From positions 1,504,001 to 1,568,000 of the forward strand of contig CAVXKA010000001.1 of assembly GCA_963762255.1 (NCBI GenBank): a DNA stretch of 64,000 nucleotides, in the 5' to 3' direction. Position numbers and translations under genes: made by a program. Of the stretch, positions 5,467-20,391 are shown in pieces (the stretch's first letter is position 1; each line of letters starts with the position of its first letter). The notes under the pieces are model-generated. The model did no database searches, was not told the DNA's origin, and was given only the letters and a program-made list of their open reading frames with translations. The DNA comes from Candidatus Eiseniibacteriota bacterium. Lineage in GTDB: Bacteria; Eisenbacteria; RBG-16-71-46; JABDJR01.

Positions 5467-8400
5467 CTACGGCACCCGGGTGATCTTGACCGCGCCCGCG
5501 GTGCGGCCATCCACCACCACTCGGGTGAAGAAGATCCCCGCGCCGGCGTCGAGGCCGGTGTCGGTGCGGCCGTCCCAGCTCAGCCGGTGCTCGCCCGCAT
5601 TCAGGCGGCCGGAGTAGATCACGCGCACGCGACGTCCGGTCAGATCGAACACCTCGGCGCGCACCTCGTACTCGTCCTTGCCGCCGTCGGCGCGGCCCGC
5701 CAAAACCACCGGCACCTGCGCGGCACCGATCATCGGGTTCGGGAACGCGGCGAGAAGCCGCGTCACGCCCGCCGGCGTGTCACCGGGGACGCTCGTCGTG
5801 CTCTTGGCATCGGGAAGGCCGTCGTCATCCGCGTCGACGGTCACCATGCACCGATTGTCCACCGCGGGCAGCGTGGCGCTCTCATTGTTCGGGCAGACGT
5901 CGCCGCCGAGTGTGCCGGTCGGCTCGGGATCCCAGCACACGGAGGCCACCGCCGCGATCTTCGTTCCCGCCGGCACCTGGCCCGCTCCCAGCCCGTAGAG
6001 CACGTCCCACGGAATCGCCAGCTCGCTCCCGCCGTTGTTGCCGTTCAGGTGGTTGGGATCGAAGGCCATGATCGCCTGCGAGCTCAAGTCCACCGCGGTC
6101 GTCGGACTGGTGATCCGCCAGAGGCTCTGGCCGTCGTAGACGCTCTGGTGCTGATAGGCGCCCATCTGAATGTCGGGCTTGAAGCCGGGACCGCTGAAGC
6201 TCGCGCCTCGTTCCCAGCTCGAGATCGCGGTCAGGTCGGTCTGCCCGTTCGGCCCGCCGAAATCGGTGTCGAGATAGAGGAGCCAGGAATTCCCCTTCAC
6301 GCGACCCTGGATGCCGATGTAGAGGTAGTCGGCATCCCAGTCCATGTAGAGGACGTTGATCTCGTTGGTGTCACCGGGAGAAGAACTGTTCCAGGCCGAG
6401 TCCCACCAGTCCTCGCACTGCCAGCGCGCATTCCCCCAGTCGGCCGTCGAGAAGAGTCCGTCGATCTGGATCGCGGTCGGCGGCGTGTAGTTCACGGCCA
6501 CGTTGTCGTTTTGCGTGACCTGGACGTTCCCGTTGCTCGCCGCGTCGCGCACGGTGTTGGCCGCCAGGAGCAGTTCCAGCGAGCCCGTGCTGAGCGCCTC
6601 CAGCGCGGCCGCGGTCGTCGGCGTCAAGTCGAAGTCGAGCTTCGTGCTGGTACCGGTCGTGGTGAGCGTCTCCGAGTTGGTGAGCGTCACCTCGGCGATC
6701 GCCGTCGTTGTCGTCGTCGATGGCGATTCCGGTCTTCACCACCAGGGACGCCTGCACCGGCTCGTCGAAGTAAAGCGTGAGGTGGTTCGTGCCCGGGAAG
6801 TAGGTGCCGCTCAGGGCCAGCGGTCCAAGCTGGTCGGTGAGTGCGTCGCGCAGCGCCTTCAGCTCGGGGATGTGCCCCTGGCCGTCCAGCGCGCTCGAGA
6901 AGCCGCCGTAGACGAGCACCCGGAACTGACTGTCGCCGTAGAACTCGTCGCCCTCCAGGAGCGTGGCCGAGAACTGGGTGTTGTGATGTCCGCCCGCCGA
7001 TCCCACCACGACGCCTGCGGTCGCGTTCGTGTTGGGGTTCTTCTGACCGAAGTAGCCGCCGCCGTCGGGATCCCACACCCGGTTCAGCGTACCGTTCCAG
7101 GTCATGTCGCGCAGGTCGGGGCTGAACCCGTTCTTGACGTAGACACGCTGCCCGGGTGCCTTGTACGTGACGTCCAGGTAGGGCTGGCCCAGCGTCAAGG
7201 ACACCGTCTTCGTCACCGCGGGATGGGTGAGCCTGGCGGTGACGGTGTTGCCGGAGCCGGCCACCACGGAGAGCCCGTAGAGTTCGTGCTCCTTGTCGCT
7301 GCCGCCCACGCTCACGTCGGAGAGCGTGGCCACGTGGTTCGTCTCGTTGTAGTCGCCGTCGGTGTCCACCCAGTAAGCGTTGTCGTTGGAGACCACTGAG
7401 TAGTTGTAGTCGCTCCCCTTGGCGAAGAGCCACTGCAGCTTGCCGCCGATGGTATCGAAGACCGCCAGCAGGCGGTCGTTGTACATCACCAACTCTTCCA
7501 CCCCGTCGTCGTCGATGTCGCTCGTGTAGGCGCCGGTGGGGTTCACATAGAGCCCGCCCGCCCAGCGCGCGGCCTCGGTGTGCGGATTCGCGGAACGAAT
7601 GTGGTTCGAATAGTGGTTCTGCCACCCGGAGATCTCGCCGGCGTCGTGCCAACCGGTCTCGTGGAGGTTGGTGACCAGGATGTACCACGCCATCTCGCTC
7701 AGGTTGTTGGCCGGCGCGGTGAGGAGCTTGTTCAGCACGTTGTTCCACTGCTGGCCGTAGTTCCACTTGGGCGTGTGGCCGTCCAGGTTCGCGGCCCCGG
7801 TGTAGGCCGCCCAATCGCCGTACCAATAGTTGTTGCCGCCGCCATAGCCGTCCAGCCCGCCGAGGAGCCCGTAGGTGCCGCTCTGAAGCGTGATCGCCTG
7901 CGTGGTGAAGCCGGGATCCTGGAGCACGTCGGTCAGCTTCCACACACTCACGGTGCCGCTGTTGGCCGAGCACTGCTGGAGGATGTGGATGTAGTTGTTG
8001 AGCGCGTCCGGATTGCCGGCTCCCTGCGAGACTTCGGCCGCGATCTCCGCGTCGTTGCCGTAGAGGATGATCTCGTCCGAAGTGCTGGAGAGGATGCGGT
8101 TCCAGGCGTTGCCCCAGTTCCAGTTCACGTCGCCCACGAACGTGTTGTCGATGGGGAGGACCTTGATCCCGCCGTAGGTGTAGATGTGGTGGTCGTTGAA
8201 CGCGTTGTTGTTGTATCCGCAGTGAATGTAGTCGTCGAGGATGACCGCCCAGATGCCGTTGTCCGCGAAATCGTCGCCGATCCAGTCGATCACGTTCCCC
8301 GACGCGGTGACGCCGTTTCCGTCGTTGTCGGGGTTCTCGCACCACACGCGCTCCGGCACCCAGGCGACGCGCGGCGTGAAGCCGTAGCGGTAGGAGATCA

Positions 8401-9484
8401 TCGAGTTCTCGAGATCCACCGCCTTGCCGTTGATCTCGTCGCGCAGGAACGGCATCATGTGCTGCCCGTACGCGGAGGTGATCATCTCGATCCATCCGCC
8501 GGTGACGCCCGCCGAGAGCCAGTCGTTGAAGCTCTTGTCGTGCCACTCCGCCGCCGAGATCAGCGTCCCCGCCTGGTGCCAGTTGACCGGCAGGTTGTAG
8601 TAGTCGTGGGCGGCAAGAAGCTCGTCGGCGCCGTCGTCGGGGTTGTTGACATCGCCGTCGTTCACCGCATTCTCGCCGCGCTCACCGCGGAACACCGTGG
8701 TATAGGTGAGCCCCTGGTTCAGGTGCTGCACGAACGCGACGTTGTGGACGTTGCTCGTGGGGCTGTTGTCGGCGGTGATGCCGTCCAGCACGATGCCGCC
8801 CTCGGTGGTGAACACGTAGAAGTTGATGGGCGTGGACTCGTCTGCCGCCGCCCGGGGCGCGACCGCGTCGAACGCCGCCGCGGACTTTCCAGCGCCTTGC
8901 GCCACCGCTTCCTGGAACCCGCTCGGGAGCCAGCAACTCGCCTCGAGCATGTCCCACTCGCGGGTGGCGCGCACCGAGCGCACGCGTTCCGTCTCGCGGG
9001 CATCGCCAGCAGTGTCGAGCAAACGCGCGGTCGCCCCGGCCGAGGACTCGGTGAGTTCCACCGCGCGATCCCACGCGATGGGGGCTTCACCCGCGATGCC
9101 GTCGGGGAGCGACTTCGTCCCGCCGGACGCGTAGTCCATGAGCACGAACACCCGCACGCCGGCGTCGAGGACGCGCTCGGCGGTCTCCGCGCTCGGGGTC
9201 GGGTAGACGTTCACGCGCATCGAAAGCCGGTCCACTTCCTGATCGAAGTAGAAGCCCATGAGATCGCCACGCGCGGTCTGGCCGGTCGTGCCGTCGAAGA
9301 CGGGGTCCAATGCCTTGGCGTTGGCGCGCTGCCAGAGATGCGGGTTGCCCTCGATCTCGAGACCGGGGGCCGCGACGAGCGGCGCGATCCAGTCATGCGC
9401 GTCGAGTTCGCCGACGGAATGGCTCGCGAGCGGGAGCGCGGCGAGGACAAGGAGAAGAGGAAGCGTGCGACGGATCCAGTTCAT
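5467..9484 (-). CDS. Large secreted GH57-like glycoside hydrolase with DOMON/CBM9-like and FlgD-type Ig C-terminal domains; one frameshift near 6700
   Basis: Signal peptide, then GH57-type regions HLNQ, IEMITSAYGQH, WVPERVW and YGNDAE. The second ORF supplies IQIDG..DW, LYMDWDADYLYIG and FPNP..VFDLTGRRVR..WDGRTDTG. Removing one base near 6700 joins the frames. Confidence 0.7.
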
Positions 9485-9516: not shown

Positions 9517-9736
9517 ACCCCGTGGATGCTAAGCCTTGTTGCCTGTCGATTGGTGGCCGTCGGAAGGCGGCCGTACCGGGATCGTGGGTGCCAGAGGATG
9601 TCGTAAACCGAAGAAGATTCTACCAGATACGCGGTCGCGGACAAACCGGGCCGGGCAAGTCCAACCAGTCACAGCAGTTGTGCGGTCGCGGCCGCTGTGC
9701 AATGCTCCCCGTCACGCGCAATCCACGGAGGCATCC

Positions 9737-10477
9737 ATGACCCGACGCATTCCTCGCAAGGTCCACCACGTCCTGCCCCTACCGCGGCTCGACACGGAAT
9801 CGAACCCGCCCTTCGGTCGGGAAGTTGCGCAGGAAGTCGATTTCCTCATCCAGTTGATGGATCTCAAACCCGATGAGGCGATCCTGGACGTGGCATCGGG
9901 CGCGGGGCGACATGCTTTGGAGTTGGCTCGGCGCGGGTTTACCAACGTAACTGCGATGGATCCCTCCGATCAATTGCTGGGGATCGGGGCGAGGTGCGCG
10001 GCGTCGCTGGATCTCAAGGTGAAGTTCTTGAAGGGCGACGCGCAGAAGCCGGCGGGCAAGGACGCGTACGATGCTGCGTTGGTGCTAGGAGGTGGCGCAT
10101 TCGGGCTGATGGAGTCGGACAGGGAGAACGTGCAGGTTCTCGATGCCGTGTTCGACGCGCTGAAGCCGGGTGGGCGGATGGCGCTGAGCGCGATGAGCCT
10201 CTTGAACCTGCTGCGGCACCGAACGGAGCTGGCGAACTTCGATCCCGACACGAACTATCTGACCACGACCGAGCAGGTACCGGTGGAGGGAGACACCATC
10301 GAGGAATTCCCGCTCCACGAGCGCTATTACGTGGTGCCGGGGCTGCGCAACGACCTCCTGCGGATCGGGTTCCGCAACATCATGGCGTTCGGCGCGGACT
10401 CGGGGCGGTTCTCCAGCCGGTCGGTGAGCACCGACGACCCGGAGATCCTCATGTCGGCGGTCAAGCCGAAGGGGTGA
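9737..10477 (+). CDS. Class I SAM-dependent methyltransferase
   Basis: Motif I ILDVASGAGRH. ATG 9737 follows GGAGG. Confidence 0.85.
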   Translation: MTRRIPRKVHHVLPLPRLDTESNPPFGREVAQEVDFLIQLMDLKPDEAILDVASGAGRHALELARRGFTNVTAMDPSDQLLGIGARCAASLDLKVKFLKGDAQKPAGKDAYDAALVLGGGAFGLMESDRENVQVLDAVFDALKPGGRMALSAMSLLNLLRHRTELANFDPDTNYLTTTEQVPVEGDTIEEFPLHERYYVVPGLRNDLLRIGFRNIMAFGADSGRFSSRSVSTDDPEILMSAVKPKG

Positions 10478-10747
10478 GGGCTGGGCCTCCGGATACTCGG
10501 GTGCCATACCCGGTTTCCTGCACACATCAGAGCGTCTCCACAGAGTACGGCCACCCCAGCTCATCGCTCAGGCGTGCTGGGGAGTTGCTGCGTTCGCCGG
10601 AAAGGAAGATCGAGGGTAGATCTCGCGCCTTCTGGATTGCGGTGGTTCATTACCACCACCGCGAGACTAGCTCAGTGGACAGCCGGGAGACACGAAACTC
10701 ATGATAATATTCCATCAGTGTCCGCAGGCCCAGTTGGGAGGCAATCC

Positions 10748-11332
10748 ATGCCCGAGGAACTGCGAAACCACGAACTCGTCACCCTGGCTGTCTATTTGGT
10801 GGGAGGGGACGCCCATGAAGTTGACACGGAAGATGTCGCTATAAAGGCTGATGAACTAGCGCCAGGTCGATTCACGTGGAGGAAATATAGAGATCAGATT
10901 AATATTGAGATAATCAGAGCGTTTCTATCCGACGCTAAGAAACCAAAGAATGGTGGCTACCTCATTGGCACGGGGAACACGGGTTGGCTGTTGACTGGGG
11001 CCGGTTTGTCATTCGTTACTGCGAACCTGATCCGACTCAAAACAATACATGATCGCGGGGCACGTCTGGGCGCAGAGGAGCGTCGGCGTCGGACAAGAGA
11101 ACATGATCGCTTACTCAGTACTGCGGCCTTCCAGAAGTACTCGGCGGGCGAACAGTCTGCTATATCTATGCGGGACGCAGAGGCTGCCTTCAGGCTGAAT
11201 GAGTACATTGTTGGAGAGGCGCGACGCAGGAAGGTACAAAAGCTGGTCAATACATTCGCAGATGATGAGGAACTGGGAGGCGCGATCCGGTTCCTGGCTG
11301 CCCTTGCGTGCGGGGAGACCGGTGATGACTGA
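10748..11332 (+). CDS. Hypothetical protein, probable winged-helix DNA-binding domain
   Basis: ATG after GGGAGG. Helical N-part ends in a G..GWLLTGAG wing-like motif. Its stop overlaps the next start by 8 nt. Confidence 0.6.
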   Translation: MPEELRNHELVTLAVYLVGGDAHEVDTEDVAIKADELAPGRFTWRKYRDQINIEIIRAFLSDAKKPKNGGYLIGTGNTGWLLTGAGLSFVTANLIRLKTIHDRGARLGAEERRRRTREHDRLLSTAAFQKYSAGEQSAISMRDAEAAFRLNEYIVGEARRRKVQKLVNTFADDEELGGAIRFLAALACGETGDD

Positions 11333-12986
11333 AGCAGAAGAGCTGTATGTGAAAAGTCACGTTTCACGTGATCTATTGCAGAGCGCGGCACTCTTCAAGA
11401 ATGACCACCTCGTCGTTTGGGAATACGTCTCCAATGGGCTTCAGTACGTCGACCCGGGTACGGTTCCCAGAGTCCGGGTGACGCTGGATGATAGGCGAAA
11501 GCGAATCGCGATCAAAGACAATGGGCGAGGAATGACGTTCGCTGACCTTCAGGACTTCTTCGTCATGCACGGAGAGAACGTCGATCGAAAGATCGGGCGA
11601 CCGGGTCGCGGGATGTTCGGAACGGGCAAGTCAGCGGCGTTCGGGATCGCAGAAAGACTGATCATCTCCACCACCCGGAACGGGATGCGAACACGGGTAT
11701 CCTTGTCCCGTGACGACATAAATGGGATGCGAGACAACTCCCCCATTCCCGTTCAGGTCTTGGAGAGAACAGAGAATTCGGAGGAAGCGAATGGGACACT
11801 GGTAGAGATTGAGGGCGTCCATCTTCGGAAGCTTGATCAGAAGAACGTCATTCGGTTTGTGGAACGACATCTCGCGCATTGGCCTCGCAACGTCGTTGTG
11901 TGGATCAACAATCACGAATGCCAGTATGTGCCCCCCGCGGCCCTGCGACTGGATGTGATTCACCCAAGCGGGGAAATCGCGGAGATTCTGGGGCCGTGCA
12001 AACTGAATCTGCGTGTGTCCGCGGTGCCGTTGGGCGCTGACGAGGCAGGCGTGGCGGTGTTCTCAAAAGGGGTGTGGTATGAGACGACCCTCGCCGGAAG
12101 CGAAGGGCGCGAGATGGCTAGCTTCATCTTTGGCGATATCGACATTCCTAGAATCGACGAGGATGACTCACCGATTGCTCCGTTTGATATGAGCAGGGCG
12201 ATGCATCTTAACGCTGCCAATCCCTTGGTTCAGACTGCATACGCGTTCATTGGGACCAGCGTTGAGAAGCTAAGAAGGGAGCTGGTGGCTGAGGAGCGTA
12301 GGAGGCGTGCTTCTGAGGAGGCGCAGAAACTGGCGATGCAGGGGAGCGAAATCGCCCGCGTGATCAATGAGGATTTCCGTGAGTTTCAGCAAAGAGTGGC
12401 CAAAGCGCGCGCACGTGCGCGGGGAGGAGACGACCTTGGGGTGACCGAGCTGGACGGGGGGGGAGAAGCAGCCGACCTGGTGTTTGGGCGCGACGAGGGA
12501 GCGGTTATTCTGGATGATCATGGCAGCCCTGGAGCAGAAGGGAGTGGGGGGGGCGGAGCGGGGGGAGAGCCGCGCACGCTGAACCCGGAGGTCGAAGCCG
12601 GTACGGACGCGGACCCAAAGCTCGGACAGAGATCCGGTAGCGATGGTGGGGGTAGGGCCAAGCCCCGTGGCGGGTTCAGTATTGAATTTAGACACATGGG
12701 CCAAGACCAGGACCGGGCCAAGTACCAGCGAGAAGCAAGGCAGATTGTCATCAACTTGGACCATCCCCAGCTACATGCCGCGCTTGGTTCAGGTAGCGTA
12801 GAAGACCCCGTGTTTCGACGGCTTGCATATGAGGTCGCGTTCTCAGAGTACGCGCTTGCACTGGCACTTGAGTTGGCGTTGCGCGATGAGTATGTGGACA
12901 TCACAGATCCGATCGTCGAGATTGGGGAGACCTTGAATCGAGTTGCGCGGCGCGGAGCGTCCCTCTATGAGGAACCCAGTACCTAG
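11325..12986 (+). CDS. GHKL (MORC/HSP90-like) ATPase
   Basis: Bergerat-fold boxes WEYVSNG, KDNGRGM, GMFGTGK and GTLVEI, then a coiled coil, a Gly/acidic linker and C-terminal INLDHP. Confidence 0.85.
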   Translation: MTEAEELYVKSHVSRDLLQSAALFKNDHLVVWEYVSNGLQYVDPGTVPRVRVTLDDRRKRIAIKDNGRGMTFADLQDFFVMHGENVDRKIGRPGRGMFGTGKSAAFGIAERLIISTTRNGMRTRVSLSRDDINGMRDNSPIPVQVLERTENSEEANGTLVEIEGVHLRKLDQKNVIRFVERHLAHWPRNVVVWINNHECQYVPPAALRLDVIHPSGEIAEILGPCKLNLRVSAVPLGADEAGVAVFSKGVWYETTLAGSEGREMASFIFGDIDIPRIDEDDSPIAPFDMSRAMHLNAANPLVQTAYAFIGTSVEKLRRELVAEERRRRASEEAQKLAMQGSEIARVINEDFREFQQRVAKARARARGGDDLGVTELDGGGEAADLVFGRDEGAVILDDHGSPGAEGSGGGGAGGEPRTLNPEVEAGTDADPKLGQRSGSDGGGRAKPRGGFSIEFRHMGQDQDRAKYQREARQIVINLDHPQLHAALGSGSVEDPVFRRLAYEVAFSEYALALALELALRDEYVDITDPIVEIGETLNRVARRGASLYEEPST

Positions 12987-13059
12987 TCCTTCCGCTTCTG
13001 ACAGTGCCGGCTCCGCCATGGCCGCAGCAGCTGAGCACTGAGCCGAGGCGGAATTTGCG

Positions 13060-15462
13060 ATGAAGACGCAGGGGCGGCGCACTATTCCACAGTTGTTCCT
13101 TTCGGATAGTGCTCGGAGATGTCTCAAGAGACTGGCAATCGAGCGCGTCGTTGACCTAGCGCGCGTGACGCCCACGGAGATTTTGGGAGCCTGTGAAGAG
13201 AATCATGACACGCTCCAGGAAATCACGCAGCTCGCTTGGGAGATGGGCTCCCCGGTCGCAAGTCAACTAACGATTGACTTTGCCGGCACGCGCATTCATG
13301 AAGCTGATACTTCCGCCAACGTCCACCACCAGCATTCTGCGGATGTGGTCCCTCGTGTCCTTCTCTTGGGTGTTACGGACTTTCATCTTTCGGTACGTGC
13401 TCGAAATGGGCTAAAGAGGCTGAACATCGAGTTTGTAGGAGACCTTGTGACGACGCCAAGGTCGATCCTGCTGCGAACGCGTAACCTGGGCCGAAAGACA
13501 CTCGGCGAGCTCGAGCATCTCGCGGCTGGACTAGGCATGGTGCTGGGTATGCAGATTCCCTCCTGGGAGACGATCGACGCTTGTCGTGAGGCGACGCGAC
13601 ACCGTGCTGCCTTGGATGGATTGCGGGAGCGTCTGAAGCGCGGGGTCCGCGCCGAGGTCGTTCCTGTTGCTGAGTCGGCGAGTGCAGCCGCAGCGCCGAT
13701 GCAGAGCCATTGGAGATCCGAAGAACTCGCACTAATCATGCTCATGCGAGTGGCTGATTTCGGGCTCTCAGCACGCGCGAAGAGCGGCCTGGAGAAGTTG
13801 CACATCGAGTTTCTGGGTGACTTGGTCACGACGAAGGAGAGGAAGTTTCGAACGACGCGCAACTTTGGTCAGAAGACCCTGGAGGAGCTGCGCAATCTCG
13901 TGGGGTCGTTCGGGCTTGTTCTCGGATCCGATATGTCGGGATGGCTAGGCGTAGCAGCGCATGAGGCTGAAAAGCGGCACAAGGAGGAGATAGATAGGCT
14001 GTGGAGACGAGTTGCGCAGGAGCGCTTCTCTATTGATTCAACTTGCGGGGTAGAGCAAGAGATCGAATCGGCGCTGCACTTGGCACTACGTGCTGACCGT
14101 GTCAGGAGAGTCAGCGCATGGATGGGTCTCGGACGAGACGTGTGTCCAACGTTGGAGGAGGTTGGTTCGGAGTGCGGGGTTACGCGTGAGCGAATCCGGC
14201 AGATCGTGATGGCTGGAAGCACGAGGGTGCGTACAGTGCGGCTGGAAATGCCCAGGCTGCGCGGGGCACTTAGGGGACTTGAGGGAGCTGGATTGTTGTC
14301 AATCAGGAGCGCTGAGGCGTTTCTCAAGGAAGAGGGGTACACGACGGGGAACATCTCAATGGCGTGCCTGCTTCGGACTGCGAGGTTCTTCGGCATTCAG
14401 ACGCAACTGAGGATGATCAAGGGAGGTGGGCAAGAGTTCGTTGGCACGCCGAGAGCAAGAATGGTCCTCTTGCCAATCCGTCGTGAAACGCGACGGGCGG
14501 TCAGAAGGTGGGGATGCGCAACACTGGAGGATGTGGCGGCACAAGCGAGTCGGGAAGCTGCTCGTGCGATCTCAGCGGATCTGGTCGGGGACGTCGCGAA
14601 GACCTTCGGTGATTTCCGATGGCTGGATGAGGAGTCGGGCTGGTTCTGGCTTTCTAAGACGCGTCAGAATCGCCTGCTTTCTAGGATCGACAAGATTCTG
14701 GCTGTCGCGCCCCGCGTTGATCTGGCGCAACTCCGGGCCGGTGTTGGGCGGCACTATCGGATGGAGGGCTTTGCTCCACCCCTCCGAGTACTCCGCTCCC
14801 TTTGTGAACAGATGGAGGGCTGTGACGTCATTGATGGACAGATCATCGTTGCCCTGCGCCCACGAAGACTGGACATGGTACTCAGCGGCACCGAAAGAGT
14901 CCTCGTTACTGTAATGCGTGACCACGGGCCAGTCGTGTCATATGCGGAGATCGTGCGCCGATGTGTCGCCGCCGGCCTCAATCCGACAACGACGAGTGTT
15001 CATCTGGGTAACTCACCGGTCGTCCGTCGCCTCGCTCCTGGAGCGTATTCGCTGATTGGACAATCAGTGCTTCCCGGAGAGGTGGCTAGAGTGATCGCAG
15101 GCGCAACACATGGGAAACGGGTCATTCAGGATTCAGGCTGGGCTCGTGACGGGAGTGCATTCTGGGTGACATACAAGATCTCCGAGAGCGTTCTCCGGAG
15201 CGGTGTTGTGAGTGTTCCGGCCGGACTTGCGAAGCTCATGACGCCTCAGGGGTACGACTTGATCGGAGTTGATGGTGGGCATGTCGGACGCATCAGGGTT
15301 GCGGGGTCAAGCATATGGGGGTTCCTACCCGTCTTCCGAAGGCGTGGGGGAGATGCGGGGGACTATGTGCGTGTGACCTTTCGAAATAGCAGTGCTACGG
15401 CCAAGTTCGAATTCAGCGACATTCCATTCGAGGATGCGTACGTGACCCGGACCCTGTCCTGA
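13060..15462 (+). CDS. Multi-domain protein: three RNA polymerase alpha-CTD-like repeats, a sigma70 region 4 HTH and an uncharacterised C-terminal region
   Basis: Repeats LSDSARRCLKRLAI, LSVRARNGLKRLNIEFVGDLV..NLGRKTLGEL and LSARAKSGLEKLHIEFLGDLV..NFGQKTLEEL. Sigma4 motif TLEEVGSECGVTRERIRQI. Confidence 0.8.
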   Translation: MKTQGRRTIPQLFLSDSARRCLKRLAIERVVDLARVTPTEILGACEENHDTLQEITQLAWEMGSPVASQLTIDFAGTRIHEADTSANVHHQHSADVVPRVLLLGVTDFHLSVRARNGLKRLNIEFVGDLVTTPRSILLRTRNLGRKTLGELEHLAAGLGMVLGMQIPSWETIDACREATRHRAALDGLRERLKRGVRAEVVPVAESASAAAAPMQSHWRSEELALIMLMRVADFGLSARAKSGLEKLHIEFLGDLVTTKERKFRTTRNFGQKTLEELRNLVGSFGLVLGSDMSGWLGVAAHEAEKRHKEEIDRLWRRVAQERFSIDSTCGVEQEIESALHLALRADRVRRVSAWMGLGRDVCPTLEEVGSECGVTRERIRQIVMAGSTRVRTVRLEMPRLRGALRGLEGAGLLSIRSAEAFLKEEGYTTGNISMACLLRTARFFGIQTQLRMIKGGGQEFVGTPRARMVLLPIRRETRRAVRRWGCATLEDVAAQASREAARAISADLVGDVAKTFGDFRWLDEESGWFWLSKTRQNRLLSRIDKILAVAPRVDLAQLRAGVGRHYRMEGFAPPLRVLRSLCEQMEGCDVIDGQIIVALRPRRLDMVLSGTERVLVTVMRDHGPVVSYAEIVRRCVAAGLNPTTTSVHLGNSPVVRRLAPGAYSLIGQSVLPGEVARVIAGATHGKRVIQDSGWARDGSAFWVTYKISESVLRSGVVSVPAGLAKLMTPQGYDLIGVDGGHVGRIRVAGSSIWGFLPVFRRRGGDAGDYVRVTFRNSSATAKFEFSDIPFEDAYVTRTLS

Positions 15463-15783
15463 CCGGATGTGGCGGCGGCCATCCCCCGCACCATCACCTG
15501 CTGCACCGCGAACACGATCCCCAGGAGCGTTCCGCCGGCATCATCCCGGTGTAAGTCGCTCCGAAGTCGCCAACCACATGCTCGCAGGACCAAGTCTCCT
15601 CGCGATGGCGCTTATTCGGTGTCTAGAAGATGGACGACTTCAGGAGCGCTGCCCGCGAGTCGGAGAACCCCAGCACCAACGCAAGCTCCGTCCACATGCC
15701 GAGGAGCAAGACCCGGCTCTTGCTCGATTGATTGAAGATCTGAAGGAGGTCGTTCAGCGCTCCGCCGATGGCAACGATGGTCC

Positions 15784-15817
15784 AAAAGAAAGGGAGGGGC
15801 CTCTCGGGCCCCTCCCT
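15784..15817 (-). terminator. Intrinsic terminator
   Basis: Minus strand hairpin AGGGAGGGGCC-CGAGA-GGCCCCTCCCT followed by TTCTTTT, downstream of the 16377-15868 gene. Confidence 0.75.
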
Positions 15818-15867
15818 CGCGTAGCACCCCCCAGGGATATCGATACGCTCTGAAGCGAAACTGCGAG

Positions 15868-16377
15868 TTACTGGACGACGATCGCGCCGCGATCGACGAG
15901 ATCGATGCCGGTCACCTTCCAGATCTGGAAGGGGCCTTTGTCGCCGCCGCGAGCCACGATCTGGTCGCCGTCACCGACGAGGCGCAGATTGCCGGCGATG
16001 ACCGCAACCTGATAATTGAGTACCTTTCCGTCGAGGTCCTTCACCTCGAACGAAGCGCCGCGCACGGCGCGCACTTCCTGGCTGAACTCGCTCACGAGCT
16101 GCCCGCCCGAGATCGTGTCCTTGCGCCGGTCGATGAGGATCAGAGTCTGTGCGTCGTCGAGGTTCCCGGCGCCGGAAGCGATCGTGTAATTGGTGCCGTC
16201 GAACGAGAACGCCGTGCTGCGGGTCTGAGTCGTCGCGCCGCTGGCGCCGGCAAGGCCGTCGATCGCCGTGACGCGGACGACCGCCACCTTCCCGTCGGGG
16301 ATCGCCGCCGCGGAGGCGGTTGTAGCGATACCCGCAGCCAAGATGAGAGTCAGAAGGACAAAGCTTGCAGATTTCAT
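15868..16377 (-). CDS. Hypothetical secreted protein
   Basis: ATG 16377 after GGAGGTGGAG. Signal peptide MKSASFVLLTLILAAGIATTASA. Host-like codon usage. Confidence 0.7.
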   Translation of the reverse strand: MKSASFVLLTLILAAGIATTASAAAIPDGKVAVVRVTAIDGLAGASGATTQTRSTAFSFDGTNYTIASGAGNLDDAQTLILIDRRKDTISGGQLVSEFSQEVRAVRGASFEVKDLDGKVLNYQVAVIAGNLRLVGDGDQIVARGGDKGPFQIWKVTGIDLVDRGAIVVQ

Positions 16378-16637
16378 GGTGTGCTCCACCTCCGATTGGG
16401 TAGTCCGAAGGGTTCGGCCATCAGTATAGCACTCTAACTCGTTGTCGTTCAATGGGTTAATTTGCCCATCCATTCAAGTGTCGGTCGATCAACAGGTTGC
16501 GTGCGATTTGCATGACGCGCCGGCTCATCGGTGGGGGATATCGCCCGGGACAGTTGTGCGGGATCGTCGCCATGGGTACTCTCGGCGCCGGACTCCCGGC
16601 CGCACATCTCACCATCGCCCCTCAGCGAGAGACAACC

Positions 16638-19600
16638 ATGACGCGTTCCATTCGCCTCGCTCTTCTTGCTGCGCTCGTATGCGTGCTCGCGCCCGTCTCG
16701 GCGAGCGCCACCTCTCCTGTCGGTTATTACCGCCAGCCGTGGTTGCATGGCAACACGCTCGTCTTCATCGCCGAGGGGGATATATGGAAGGTGCCCGACA
16801 CGGGCGGCACCGCCACGCGGCTTACCAGTCACGCCGGCAACGAGGCAACTCCCGCAATCTCTCCCGACGGCAAGACGCTCGCGTTCGTCGCGTCCTACGA
16901 GGGCCCCACCGAGGTCTATACGATGCCGCTCGCGGGCGGGCTGCCCACCCGCCGCACCTATGGAAGCGGGAACAACATCGCCGTTGTCGGCTGGACCCCC
17001 GACGGTCGGGTGCTGGTGACGACCGACGTGTACTCCACGATTCCCAATCGTCAACTGGTCGCGCTGGACGTCTCGCGCGCGGACGCCGCCGGGCTTCCGA
17101 CGCGCCTCCCGCTCTTCCAGGCCGCCGACGGCGACTACACCCCCGACGGCAAGACGCTCTTCTTCACGCGGTTCGCCTTCCAGGGGAGCCATACCAAGCG
17201 ATACAAGGGAGGCACCGCGCAGAACATCTGGAAGTTCGCCGACGGCGACGACGAGGCGACCTGCCTCACCGGGGATTACGCGGGCACCAGCCGGCGCCCC
17301 ATGGTGTGGAACGGTCGCGTCTACTTCGTCTCCGACCGCGACGGCTCCATGAACCTCTGGTCGATGCTCCCCGACGGAGGCGATCTCCGGCAGCACACCC
17401 GCCACGAGGGTTGGGATGCGCAGGGCGCGGCGCTCGACGGAGGGCGAATCGTCTACCAGCTCGGCGCGGACATTCATCTCTACGACATCGCCGCCGGCGC
17501 CGACCGGGTCGTGCCGATCGCGCTCGACAGCGACCTCGACCAGATGCGGGAGCACTGGGTCGACAAGCCGATGACCTACCTCACCGCGGCGCACGTCGCA
17601 CCCGACGGCAAGCGCATCGCGCTCACCGCGCGCGGCGAGGTGTTCGTGGCGCCGGTGGAACAGGGCCGCTTCGTGCAAGTGACCCGCAAGGAAGGCGTGC
17701 GCTACCGCAACGCCCGCTTCATGCCCGACGGCAAGACGCTGCTCGCTCTCTCCGACGAGTCGGGGGAAGTCGAACTCTGGAAGCTGCCCGCGAACGGCGT
17801 GGGGCAAGGCGAGCGGCTCACCACCGACGCGGGGATCCTGCGCTGGGACGGCATTCCATCGCCGGACGGCAAGCGCGTGGCGCACTGGGACAAGAAGCAA
17901 CGGCTCTTCCTGTTCGACCTTGCCACGAAGCGCAACGTTCTGATCGAGGCGAGTGAGGTCGATCAGATTTCCGACGTCACCTGGTCGCCGGACAGCCGAT
18001 GGGTCGCCTACGTCGCGCGTGCGGAGAACTCGTTCCGCCGCATCAAGGTCTACAGCGTCGCCGACGGTTCGGTCACGCCCGTCACCAGCGATCGCTTCGA
18101 TAGCTACAGCCCGGCGTGGAGCGTGGACGGCAAGTGGCTCTACTTCATCTCCGACCGGAACCTGGTCTCCATCGTGCACGGCGTGTGGGGGAGCTATCAG
18201 CCCGAGCCGTACCTGGACAAGACGAGCCAGATCTTCGAGCTGGCGCTCGTGAAAGGGGCGCGCTCGCCGTTCGCCCCCGACGATGAGCTGCAAGCGGCGG
18301 AGACGGACGACGGCGGCGAGAAGGACGCGAAGGACGACAAGGACGCGAAGGACGAGAAGAAGGACGAGGAGGCCTCGGAGGGGCCCGCCGAGGTGCGCAT
18401 CGACAAGGAGGGCATCCAGGAGCGGTTGGCCCTCACCCCGATCCCGCCCGGCAACTATGGCTCGCTGGTCGCCGTCGACAAGGCGCTGTTCTGGCTCTCG
18501 ACCCAGACCGGCGCCGCCAAGGCGGATCTCGCCGGCGCCGAGATCACGAACCAGGATCTCGAGGTGAAGACGGTGGTGGAGGGGGTCACGAGCTACGAAG
18601 CCACCGCCGATGGCAAGAAGCTCCTCGTGCGCAAGGGCGAGACGTTCCACGTGATCGACGCGTCTCCCAAGGAGGCGGAGCTGGAGAAGAACGACGTCGA
18701 TCTGTCCACGTGGGCGCTCTCGGTGATTCCCCGCGAAGAATGGCGGCAGATGTTCACCGAGGCATGGCGGCTCGAGCGCGACTACTTCTACGACCCCGGC
18801 ATGCACGGCGTGGACTGGGATGCGATGCGCAAGAAGTACGAGCCCCTGGTGGATCGCGTCACCAATCGCGCCGAGCTGTCGGATCTGCTCGCGCAGCTCG
18901 TCTCGGAACTCTCCGCGCTTCACATCTTCGTCTACGGGGGTGAATTCCGTTCCGGCCCCGACAAGGCGGAGCCGTCCACCCTGGGTGCGGTGCTGCGCGC
19001 GCGACGCACGGGCCGGCGGCTATCGCGTCGAGCATATCTACCGTTCCGACCCCGACGAGCCCGGCCGCGCCAGCCCGCTCGCACGTCCGGGTGTGAACGT
19101 GGCCGACGGGGACGTGATCACGATGGTGAACGGGGTGCCCACGCTGGACGCCGCCGATATCGGAGTCATGCTTCGCCGGCAGGCGGGGCGGCAGGTGCTC
19201 CTGCGCGTGCAACCGTCGGCGGGCGAGCGCGCGGGACGCGATCGTGGAGCCGATGTCGCTGCGCGAGGAGTCCGAGCTGCGCTACCACGAGTGGGAGTAC
19301 ACGCGACGGCTCGAGGTGGAGCGGTTGAGCCATGGCCGCATCGGCTACGTCCATCTTCGCGCGATGGGGAGCGGGAACTACACCGAGTGGGCCAAGGGGT
19401 TCTACCCCGAGTACACGAACGAAGGGCTCATCGTCGATGTGCGTCGCAACACCGGCGGCAACATCGACAGTTGGGTGCTCTCCCGGCTCATGCGCAAGGC
19501 ATGGATGTTCTGGAGCCAGCCGGTAGGGAAGTCGCCGACCTGGAACATGCAGTGCGCGTTCCGCGGGCACGTGGCGGCGTTGTGCGACGAGAAGACCGCA

Positions 19601-19945
19601 TCGGACGGCGAGGTGTTCGCCGAGGGCATCCGCCGTCTCGGAATCGGCACGCTGATCGGCACGCGCACCTGGGGCGGAGAGATCTGGCTCAGCTCGGACA
19701 ACTTCCTCGTCGACGGCGGCATCGCCACCGCCGCCGAGTACGGCGTGTACGGACCGGAAGGGGAGTGGCTCATCGAGGGCCACGGCGTCGAGCCCGACAT
19801 CGTGGTGGACAACTTGCCGCACGCGACGTTCCGAGGCGAAGACGCGCAGCTCAAGGCGGCGGTGGATCACCTGCTCAAGAAGTTGGCGGACGAGCCGGTG
19901 CCGCCTCCGCCGCAACCCGAGTATCCCGACAAGTCGTTCAAGTAG
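16638..19945 (+). CDS. Tricorn-like S41 protease (beta-propellers, PDZ, S41 core); frameshifts near 19000 and 19240
   Basis: Signal peptide, PD40 repeats (SPDGK), EAWRLERDYFYDP, SELSALH. PDZ segment is in a second frame. GYVHL, DVRRNTGG, ASDGE and GTRTWGG are in a third frame. Confidence 0.88.
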
Positions 19946-19998
19946 GGCGCGCGCGGGGCGCCCTCGCGTCCCGCGCAATTCCCCGCGGAGCGGTCAAC

Positions 19999-20391
19999 AT
20001 GACGGAGGACTTGTTCGTTCTCTACGTTGCGGATCAAAGACGGAGCGCGGCGTTCTACGCGGCCGTGTTGGGCCGCGAGCCGAGGCTGGATGTGCCGGGG
20101 ATGACCGAGTTCGACCTGCCCGGCGGGGGCGCGCTCGGCCTGATGCCCGAAGCCGGGATCAAACGGCTCTTGGGCGCCGCGCTGCCCGATCCCGCGCGCG
20201 CGAACGGCGTGCCGCGGGCGGAGCTGTACCTGCGGGTCGAGAACCCGGAATCGTTCCACGCGCGTGCGCTGCGCGCGGGGGCGCGGGAGCTGAGCCCGCT
20301 GACCGCACGCGATTGGGGGGACGAGGCGGCGTACAGCCTCGACCCGGACGGCCATGTTCTCGCGTTCGCGCGTCCCATCGGACGGCCGTGA
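19999..20391 (+). CDS. VOC/glyoxalase family protein
   Basis: Motifs LYVADQRRSAAFY, ELYLRV and DWG..AY..DPDGHVL. Confidence 0.85.
   Translation: MTEDLFVLYVADQRRSAAFYAAVLGREPRLDVPGMTEFDLPGGGALGLMPEAGIKRLLGAALPDPARANGVPRAELYLRVENPESFHARALRAGARELSPLTARDWGDEAAYSLDPDGHVLAFARPIGRP

Follow-up and report, generated by a model that had tools for sequence, protein, structure and literature searches.

A three-gene cassette pairing a MORC-type ATPase with a predicted promoter-reading protein

The 64,000-nucleotide stretch of a Candidatus Eiseniibacteriota genome analysed here (the window; contig CAVXKA010000001.1) contains a cassette of three genes, A, B and C, which on sequence grounds appears to be a widespread, unnamed and horizontally moving unit in which a MORC-type ATPase (B) is paired with a putative promoter-reader protein (C). 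Our central interpretation, for which we put the chances at about even, is that A, B and C form a horizontally mobile MORC-type ATPase complex targeted to DNA, most likely serving as a conflict system against invading DNA, whether phage, plasmid or other mobile element. The cassette is probably a defence or silencing system.

The three genes lie in order on the + strand, at positions 10748-11332 (A, 194 amino acids (aa)), 11325-12986 (B, 553 aa) and 13060-15462 (C, 800 aa). A encodes a small protein without an assigned family that is translationally coupled to B, B encodes a MORC-type GHKL ATPase and C a predicted multi-domain DNA-binding protein. Gene A runs from an ATG at 10748 to a TGA at 11330-11332 and is preceded by a GGGAGG Shine-Dalgarno sequence ~6 nucleotides (nt) 5' of its start. 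The ATG of B, at 11325, precedes the stop codon of A, giving an overlap of 8 nt (ATGACTGA), and 73 nt separate the end of B (12986) from the start of C (13060). The G+C (GC) fraction is 0.54-0.60 over positions 10500-15500, compared with 0.62-0.73 on either side, and both flanks carry host-type genes. An earlier note on this DNA had described three co-oriented genes inserted between host genes and more AT-rich than their flanks, and the coordinates and GC profile agree with that description; the overlap and the gap that it gave were both reproduced. Its remark that no nuclease, methylase or kinase motif could be recognised also holds for A, B and C when searched against Pfam, PADLOC, NCBIfam and PHROGs.

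The three genes are conserved as a unit

A, B and C constitute a real conserved unit. A metagenome scan with conserved B peptides gave at least 535 confirmed stretches, the best 80 of which were taken as loci; together with one genome locus (L029) these fall into 73 groups when B is clustered at 95% nucleotide identity. Gene A adjoins B in all 65 groups with at least 620 bp of upstream sequence. Downstream of B, 46 groups have 2300 bp or more of sequence, and in 42 of them a C-like open reading frame (ORF) comes after B on the same strand. C lies divergently, upstream of A, in two of these 46 groups and is absent from another two (L086 and L088). A and B overlap or abut in all loci examined, and B is mostly separated from C by 0-80 nt. 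These counts bear out the expectation, raised in the earlier note, that the three genes should co-occur elsewhere.

The variants are informative about how the parts combine. At L086 (2302-5889) and L088 (2141-3868) an Eco57I-type N6 DNA methyltransferase takes the place of C after A-B, and at L086 it is followed by an AIPR/AbiU protein (8.3e-34). Because a methyltransferase stands in for C at these loci, A-B seems to be a module able to pair with other partners. Two natural fusions, P0295 (1044 aa, from a cluster of 59 sequences) and P0296 (1036 aa), carry residues 5-350 of B joined directly to a C-like protein, leaving out the linker and C-terminal domain of B. The two are 83% identical, which indicates that the fusion has persisted. 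The existence of such fusions suggests that B and C act in one complex and, since they put C exactly in the place of the C-terminal domain of B, that domain would be the part that normally holds C.

Distribution and mobility

Relatives of B number at least 1943 in a word-indexed search, the best 120 listed sharing 54-68% identity, nearly all over 97-100% of the length. An exhaustive profile search of 1.84 billion 50%-identity cluster representatives with the C-terminal module of C returned 3121 relatives at E<=1e-3, of which 2362 remained at E<=1e-10 and 1144 at E<=1e-30; it supersedes a word-index search with the whole of C, whose low yield of 22 matches was an index artefact. The matches from a scan of genome contigs with the C alignment (L001-L022) were set aside as ordinary sigma-like matches confined to C residues 301-430. 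By name, the sources of B homologs include Myxococcota, Acidobacteriota, 'Deltaproteobacteria', Polyangiales and Fimbriimonadales, and the cassette so far lies on chromosomal or unassigned contigs, mostly of uncultivated bacteria.

Within the host phylum, B and the C-terminal half of C occur in the same 2 of 206 genomes, and neither B nor C was found in one genome of the same genus (75% complete) or in six of the same family. The second genome with the trio (L029) belongs to the same class and carries it at 44, 52 and 28% identity to the window. The sequence shared by these two loci is the trio alone; the flanks are unrelated and the sites non-syntenic. The GC content of the trio is below that of its flanks in 28 of 32 loci, with a mean difference of 5.4 points. 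Given this patchy distribution, the unrelated flanks and the low GC, the cassette is accessory and horizontally moved, and travels on its own. The idea that C might sense AT-rich DNA specifically in high-GC hosts was dropped, because the flanking DNA of the loci spans 35 to 70% GC.

Protein B has the architecture of a MORC-type ATPase

Pfam assigned HATPase_c_3 (1.2e-12) and HATPase_c (8.2e-7) to B, which has the GHKL motifs of a Bergerat-fold ATP-binding domain; residues E33, N37, D65, G67, G69, G96, G99, G101 and K102 are invariant in an alignment of 17 sequences. A transducer domain of S5 fold follows directly, and the two together occupy residues 11-329 (11355-12311). In the AlphaFold model of B, residues 1-295 comprise the GHKL domain and a second alpha/beta domain. 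Beyond these lies a segment (residues 300-448; 12222-12668) made up of a long helix (300-365) and a Gly-rich linker (367-448) that is disordered in the model, its predicted local distance difference test (pLDDT) score being below 50. The protein ends in a conserved alpha/beta domain (residues 450-547; 12672-12965), whose invariant residues are G449, G450, F451, R464, Y467, N477, H480, P481, R499, E503 and E508.

By its modelled structure B is MORC-type. The same assignment in the earlier note is supported by this model, and the ATP-binding motifs are intact. A cryptic nuclease in the C-terminal domain was considered and judged less likely, because the natural B-C fusions do without that domain. 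A second, distant GHKL match is present in the same genome (G000:C2:738089-738553, - strand; locus L026), in a 602-aa frame with 30% identity over residues 31-179 (E 7.8e-4).

Protein C combines promoter-recognition modules with further DNA-binding domains

All the parts of C that can be recognised are modules that bind nucleic acid. Pfam found three stretches matching the RNA polymerase alpha subunit's C-terminal domain (alphaCTD; RNA_pol_A_CTD, 6.3e-30) and a Sigma70_r4 match (1.8e-4) just under the gathering score. From the N-terminus the protein contains a degenerate alphaCTD-like repeat 1 (residues about 5-70; 13072-13269), alphaCTD repeat 2 (residues 95-165, with the best Pfam stretch at 101-151; 13342-13554), alphaCTD repeat 3 (residues 222-292; 13723-13935), a sigma-70 region 4.2-like helix-turn-helix (HTH; residues 355-392; 14122-14235), four tandem winged-helix domains (residues 397-687; 14248-15120) and a B3-type DNA-binding pseudobarrel (residues 694-789; 15139-15426). 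The last 404 residues match no Pfam family and fold confidently, with a pLDDT of 89.5 from 40 sequences. The earlier note had described C as three alphaCTD copies with a sigma region 4; the sigma module and repeats 2 and 3 stand, repeat 1 is degenerate, and the description was incomplete in that the winged helices and the B3 barrel follow and the closest relatives are PglW and MzaA.

Alignment of the repeats to residues 245-329 of Escherichia coli RpoA shows how much of the alpha surface each has kept. Repeat 1 is 27% identical and has lost the R265, G296 and K298 positions. At 41% identity, repeat 2 has VRARNGL and NLGRKTL opposite VRSANCL (264-270) and NLGKKSL (294-300) of alpha. Repeat 3 is 35% identical and retains the R265, G296 and K298 positions, with serine in place of N268. 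The E261 position of alpha is not similar in the repeats of C. The R265/G296/K298-type positions are those that we take to form the DNA-binding surface of alpha. According to part of a published account, alphaCTD contacts AT-rich UP elements through the minor groove (PMC2613000).

The sigma-like stretch is equally well preserved over its recognition helix. In a BLASTP alignment residues 355-381 of C are identical to E. coli RpoD 564-590 at 16 of 27 positions, with TLEEVG and VTRERIRQI unchanged, so that TRERIRQI is spelled with the same letters as in sigma70. The stretch covers the positions of sigma70 R584, E585 and R588, which a portion of the same source names as -35 contacts (PMC2613000). 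Past the recognition helix, from sigma70 residue 591 onward, C is unlike sigma70. Among 45 C-family sequences R378 and Q381 are invariant and T364, R376, E377 and R380 at least 90% conserved; RNA_pol_A_CTD is found in 36 of these members and Sigma70_r4 in 43. Searched against the PDB, the family profile matched sigma regions 3-4 at 8e-15 and alphaCTD at 2.5e-16. Pfam and NCBIfam detected Sigma70_r4 only and no sigma region 2 or core-binding part in C, and the best NCBIfam sigma-factor model reached about 23 bits against cut-offs of 354-555.

Some relatives of C are more elaborate. The homolog P0166 (1173 aa) has ~4 tandem repeats of ~65 residues after its B3 domain, at residues about 880-1173, and the distant C-like protein P0021 (928 aa) combines alphaCTD and Sigma70_r4 with the integrase-type families PF02899, PF13495 and PF13102, and with PF05066.

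Protein A, a small protein without an assigned family

A is a small protein that obligatorily partners B and is produced in step with it. Its homolog alignment (53 members) has a mean column identity of 53%. The single sequence had no match in Pfam, NCBIfam, PADLOC or PHROGs, the 53 family members gave no recurrent Pfam family, and the profile found nothing in the PDB below E 0.28; the nearest clusters in the Atlas are all unnamed. To the eye, the first 90 residues look like a winged helix. A comparison of A with the winged-helix region of C (hhalign) found no similarity (probability 0.08). The predicted A+B complex scored 0.08 against a mark of 0.32 and is uninformative on binding either way. 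The domain calls of the earlier note stood for B (by structure) and for the alphaCTD and sigma region 4 modules of C; the winged helix-turn-helix that it had assigned to A found no match in any search.

Genomic neighbourhood

In the window the cassette is flanked upstream by a GH57-like protein (6371-9484, - strand) and a class-I S-adenosylmethionine (SAM) methyltransferase (9536-10477, + strand), and downstream by a 201-aa ORF without a Pfam family (15868-16473, - strand) and a tricorn protease (from 16497, + strand). A weak sigma-70-like promoter match, TGGACA-18-CATGAT, lies on the + strand at 10676-10705, 43 nt upstream of A. It agrees with 9 of 12 consensus positions, and as the region holds four such sites against 1.6 expected, it is not evidence of function. 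No tRNA occurs within the 64-kb window, and no convincing direct repeats or att-like sites were found at the island borders. The 201-aa ORF has a hydrophobic stretch near its N-terminus and an intermediate GC of ~0.61, and a strong terminator-like hairpin (15790-15818; 12-bp stem, 9 GC pairs) follows it. Farther downstream two long + strand ORFs, 16497-19328 (the tricorn protease) and 18820-20391, overlap by ~500 nt in different frames, and the final ~100 residues of the first resemble out-of-frame sequence. The overlap may reflect a frameshift, caused by a sequencing error or marking a pseudogene.

Neighbours at other loci were surveyed with 148 ORFs of at least 150 aa lying within 2.5 kb of the trio at 58 loci, leaving out four near-duplicate loci and one 886-aa ORF. 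Pfam identified Eco57I or N6_Mtase in five of these ORFs, Phage_integrase in four, Radical_SAM in three, and Cas1, AAA_21 and DDE transposase in two each. PADLOC, run on the same ORFs, reported mad2-like or MTase_II in 5-6, Cas1 in 2-3 and HEC-01A in 2. Type II restriction-enzyme models matched beside the methyltransferases at L095 (7.4e-16), L093 (2.2e-7) and, weakly, L099 (1.8e-4); at L063 a methyltransferase adjoins C, and an OLD-type AAA_21-TOPRIM protein lies near the trio at L098. No DNA methyltransferase or nuclease stands beside the trio in the window or at L029. In clusters comprising 13 and 7 metagenome loci, PIN and MazE-like ORFs lie immediately upstream of A, as at L035, where a MazE-like ORF (675-1082, + strand; 1.7e-5) and a PIN-domain ORF (958-1461, + strand; 2e-17) form a VapBC-type pair. 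No such pair is present in the window.

These neighbours are suggestive and hint at defence islands in a minority of loci; we do not count enrichment as demonstrated. Of the defence-island enrichment for which the earlier note had suggested a test, this much is seen: some loci carry defence genes (five methyltransferases and two Cas1 per 148 ORFs, as raw counts).

Proposed mechanism and alternative explanations

In the mechanism that we propose, C would be the DNA-reading subunit, binding duplex DNA, plausibly at sites with UP plus -35-like architecture. Its alphaCTD repeats 2 and 3 keep the residues aligned to the UP-element-binding surface of alpha, and the four winged helices and the B3 barrel may add further DNA contacts. 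B would be the motor, clamping, looping or compacting the bound DNA through ATP-dependent dimerisation in the manner of MORC, MutL and topoisomerase VI-B, and would be held on C through its C-terminal domain, reached by way of the long helix and the flexible linker. A may regulate or complete B. As a result the target DNA could be occluded, silenced or compacted, or unlinked nucleases could be licensed or work together with the complex; occlusion, compaction or nuclease licensing is favoured because no nuclease or toxin is visible in the trio. The earlier note had proposed a promoter-DNA reader acting with an ATP-driven clamp, and the conserved DNA-contact residues fit that part of its account. 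The defence function itself is circumstantial: the evidence for it consists of the patchy distribution, the low GC, the homology of the modules to defence proteins and the minority of loci with defence-gene neighbours.

Several observations weigh against a conflict system built on a MORC-type ATPase. No nuclease, toxin or other effector domain is found in A, B or C. A methyltransferase is absent from most loci, so that the basis for a distinction between self and non-self is not visible. The defence-type neighbours occur in a minority of loci and are raw counts without a background control; apart from those given above, the 25 flank families listed (of 126 matched) are TPR repeats and single, mostly housekeeping-type matches such as GidA, histidinol dehydrogenase and chaperonin. 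Beyond a partial match to PglW, A, B and C reach no PADLOC model. The AlphaFold model of B is only moderately confident (pLDDT 73.8, 17 sequences), Hsp90 and TRAP1 come within about 2-3 Z units of the MORC proteins in comparison with it, and ranking by Foldseek E-value places Hsp90 and TRAP1 first. Homologs of B were not found in the 50,697 phage records searched, and the 72,556 plasmid records yielded a single partial GHKL match.

A more specific form of the mechanism, which we hold to be possible at a rather low probability, is a nuclease-free immunity or silencing machine in which C, through domesticated copies of alphaCTD that read UP elements and of sigma region 4 that read the -35 hexamer, recognises strong promoter-like DNA of incoming elements and loads an occluding or compacting MORC clamp. 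Such a machine would be a prokaryotic counterpart, possibly a forerunner, of the silencing of transposons by MORC proteins in plants and animals.

Four other explanations deserve weighing, each of which we regard as improbable. AlphaCTD and sigma region 4 are the RNA polymerase surfaces that phages hijack most often, T4 AsiA, Alt and ModA being examples of proteins that target them, and C might be a guard or decoy: a phage takeover factor would bind or modify its alphaCTD and sigma 4 copies, whereupon B, and A, would act on DNA or on the polymerase. The action of AsiA on sigma region 4 is mentioned in part of the literature consulted (PMC2613000). In favour are the arginine that repeats 2 and 3 keep at the R265 position and the sigma 4.2 helix, identical to that of sigma70; the multiplicity of the repeats is what bait would be expected to show. 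However, the residues of C conserved across the family are the DNA-contacting ones, whereas neither sigma70 591 onward nor the E261 position of alpha has a similar counterpart; moreover, five further nucleic-acid-binding domains would be needless in pure bait, and the trio contains no effector for an abortive response. We give a decoy role a small likelihood.

With similarly small likelihood, B and C could serve as an accessory motor of restriction-modification, looping or scanning DNA, in the manner of the MORC/paraMORC ATPases described in 2008, for a methyltransferase/endonuclease pair that is linked at a few loci and unlinked at most. Eco57I-type methyltransferases accompanied by Type II restriction-enzyme matches beside the trio at L093, L095 and L099, the methyltransferase beside C at L063 and those in place of C at L086 and L088 would suit such a motor, as would the resemblance of the GHKL region of B to the N-terminal part of BbrUII/HgiDII and the occurrence of a B3 domain in LlaJI.R1. 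MORC operons with B3 (VP1/RAV) proteins are also recorded in the part of the literature covered here (PMC2292703). Yet DNA methyltransferases make up just 5 of the 148 flank ORFs, the window and L029 have neither a DNA methyltransferase nor a nuclease beside the trio, and there is no helicase among the 25 listed of the 126 flank families, compared with about 70% of MORC neighbourhoods in the portion of the same source that gives this figure (PMC2292703).

The cassette might instead have no role in defence and encode a mobile factor of transcription or of the nucleoid, one that would bind DNA of the UP/-35-like kind and remodel the promoter regions of its host, to the advantage of that host or of a carrier element. 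All recognisable domains bind nucleic acid, the promoter-recognition residues are conserved, no effector is present and most of the listed flank families are of housekeeping type, all of which a regulator would explain. The count of 2 in 206 genomes across the phylum, with no find in close relatives, the low GC in 28 of 32 loci and the non-syntenic insertion sit poorly with this explanation, as does the failure of Pfam and NCBIfam to detect a sigma region 2 or core-binding part in C, and we judge it unlikely. A selfish addiction-type module, in which one product is harmful and another restrains it so that the cassette is kept, seems very improbable indeed: the tight translational coupling of A and B, the frequent PIN/MazE neighbours and the mobility of the cassette are compatible with it, but no toxin-like domain is present, toxin-antitoxin pairs consist of far smaller and simpler proteins than these, and the PIN/MazE pairs are separate genes found in a minority of loci.

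Significance

Since 2008 genomic context has linked the MORC-like ATPases of bacteria to restriction systems, and eukaryotic MORC proteins silence transposons by acting on DNA. The cassette would represent a compact, three-gene MORC version without a nuclease or helicase, with a targeting subunit derived from the promoter-recognition modules of RNA polymerase. Should the DNA-targeted complex proposed here serve in defence, it would add a mechanism in which the architecture of promoters is read in place of methylation, and would offer a tractable bacterial model for how MORC proteins act; should it be a regulator, it would define a new class of promoter-binding factors that are mobile. With 2362 relatives at E<=1e-10 and so far no name, the family merits bench work either way.

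Comparison with known systems

No PADLOC, Pfam or NCBIfam model names the trio. PADLOC gave nothing for A and, at E<=1, only matches at noise level for B (MzaB, 0.044; one REase_II model, 0.051); for C it gave the partial PglW match and a weak MzaA match. No paper that joins a MORC/GHKL ATPase to alphaCTD and sigma region 4 proteins came up in the literature searched, which did not extend to subscription journals or supplementary tables, and candidate-system lists in supplements could already contain the trio. The earlier note had not recognised the combination as a named system, and the PADLOC and NCBIfam models, which do not cover the trio, and the literature searched are in keeping with that view.

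One of the nearest known relatives is the anti-phage system MZA (MzaABCDE), in which, as here with C and B, a sigma-70-family protein (MzaA) and a GHKL ATPase (MzaB) share one operon. Residues 303-382 of C match the C-terminal sigma part of the NCBIfam MzaA model (2.9e-6; 26.4 against 800 bits), and the GHKL core of B matches MzaB (1.9e-3; 16.7 against 850 bits); one variant locus, L086, also resembles MZA in having an AIPR/AbiU protein. MZA is, however, a five-gene operon, whereas only three genes stand between host genes in the window and at L029. The system includes a nuclease, MzaD, according to the part of its description consulted (bioRxiv 10.1101/2022.06.16.496414), and MzaD has no counterpart beside the trio. 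The Mza models give no match to A, nor to three parts of C: its alphaCTD repeats, its winged-helix array and its B3 barrel.

C resembles PglW of type 2 BREX in the common order of alphaCTD-like, HTH and winged-helix domains. Residues 230-554 of C align with positions 806-1113 of the 1403 in the PADLOC model (5e-12), and the NCBIfam BREX_PglW model matches at 1.6e-14 with 52.7 bits against a cut-off of 990 bits. PglW is described, in one section of a published account, as comprising enzymatic domains (kinase), an alphaCTD-like domain, three winged HTH domains and an inactive STAND module (PMC12839542, section 23). In contrast, Pfam and NCBIfam found no kinase half in C, which matches the model at positions 800-1113 only and thus not in its C-terminal part. 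The alphaCTD repeats of C number three, and its last domain is a B3 barrel. PglX, PglY and PglZ are not near the trio, and the partner of C is a MORC-type ATPase. C is thus a homolog of PglW's DNA-binding middle that lacks the kinase.

B in turn matches N-terminal positions 38-175 of the 659 in the BbrUII/HgiDII restriction enzyme family (3.1e-11; 42.5 against 550 bits), and B3 domains like that of C also occur in restriction enzymes. With MORC and paraMORC1-5 the cassette shares a GHKL plus S5 module with a family-specific C-terminal extension, and a mobile, patchy occurrence. In the sections of the 2008 survey by Iyer, Abhiman and Aravind drawn on here, the usual partners are superfamily-II helicases and nucleases, a helicase being present in about 70% of MORC neighbourhoods, and some MORC/paraMORC neighbourhoods contain methyltransferases, endonucleases, AIPR and B3 (VP1/RAV) proteins (PMC2292703); the terms 'sigma' and 'alpha subunit' do not occur in the portion of its text covered. 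By contrast, the constant partners of B are A and C in place of the restriction-type operon partners, and no helicase family was seen among the 25 listed of the 126 matched flank families. Compared with eukaryotic MORC2/3/4 and SMCHD1, to which its sequence identity is 10-16%, B has no CW zinc finger or other chromatin-reader domain, and DNA targeting would here come from a separate protein, C.

The homology of C to RNA polymerase alphaCTD and sigma-70 region 4 is clear at the sequence level, with DNA-contact residues retained, but C lacks the alpha N-terminal domain and its best RpoA model reached 121.6 bits against a cut-off of 302. The only other alphaCTD match in the genome lies on another contig and is probably the genuine rpoA. 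Two further systems proved to be unrelated in the parts of their descriptions consulted, namely MANTIS/Gao_RL, with an AAA+ ATPase, a methyltransferase and a helicase-nuclease (bioRxiv 10.64898/2026.09.23.753747), and the GHKL-Shedu fusion VcSduA of Vibrio cholerae (PMC12137116). The trio is distinct from MZA, from type 2 BREX and from the MORC/paraMORC operons of 2008, and is best filed within the GHKL/MORC-associated conflict systems.

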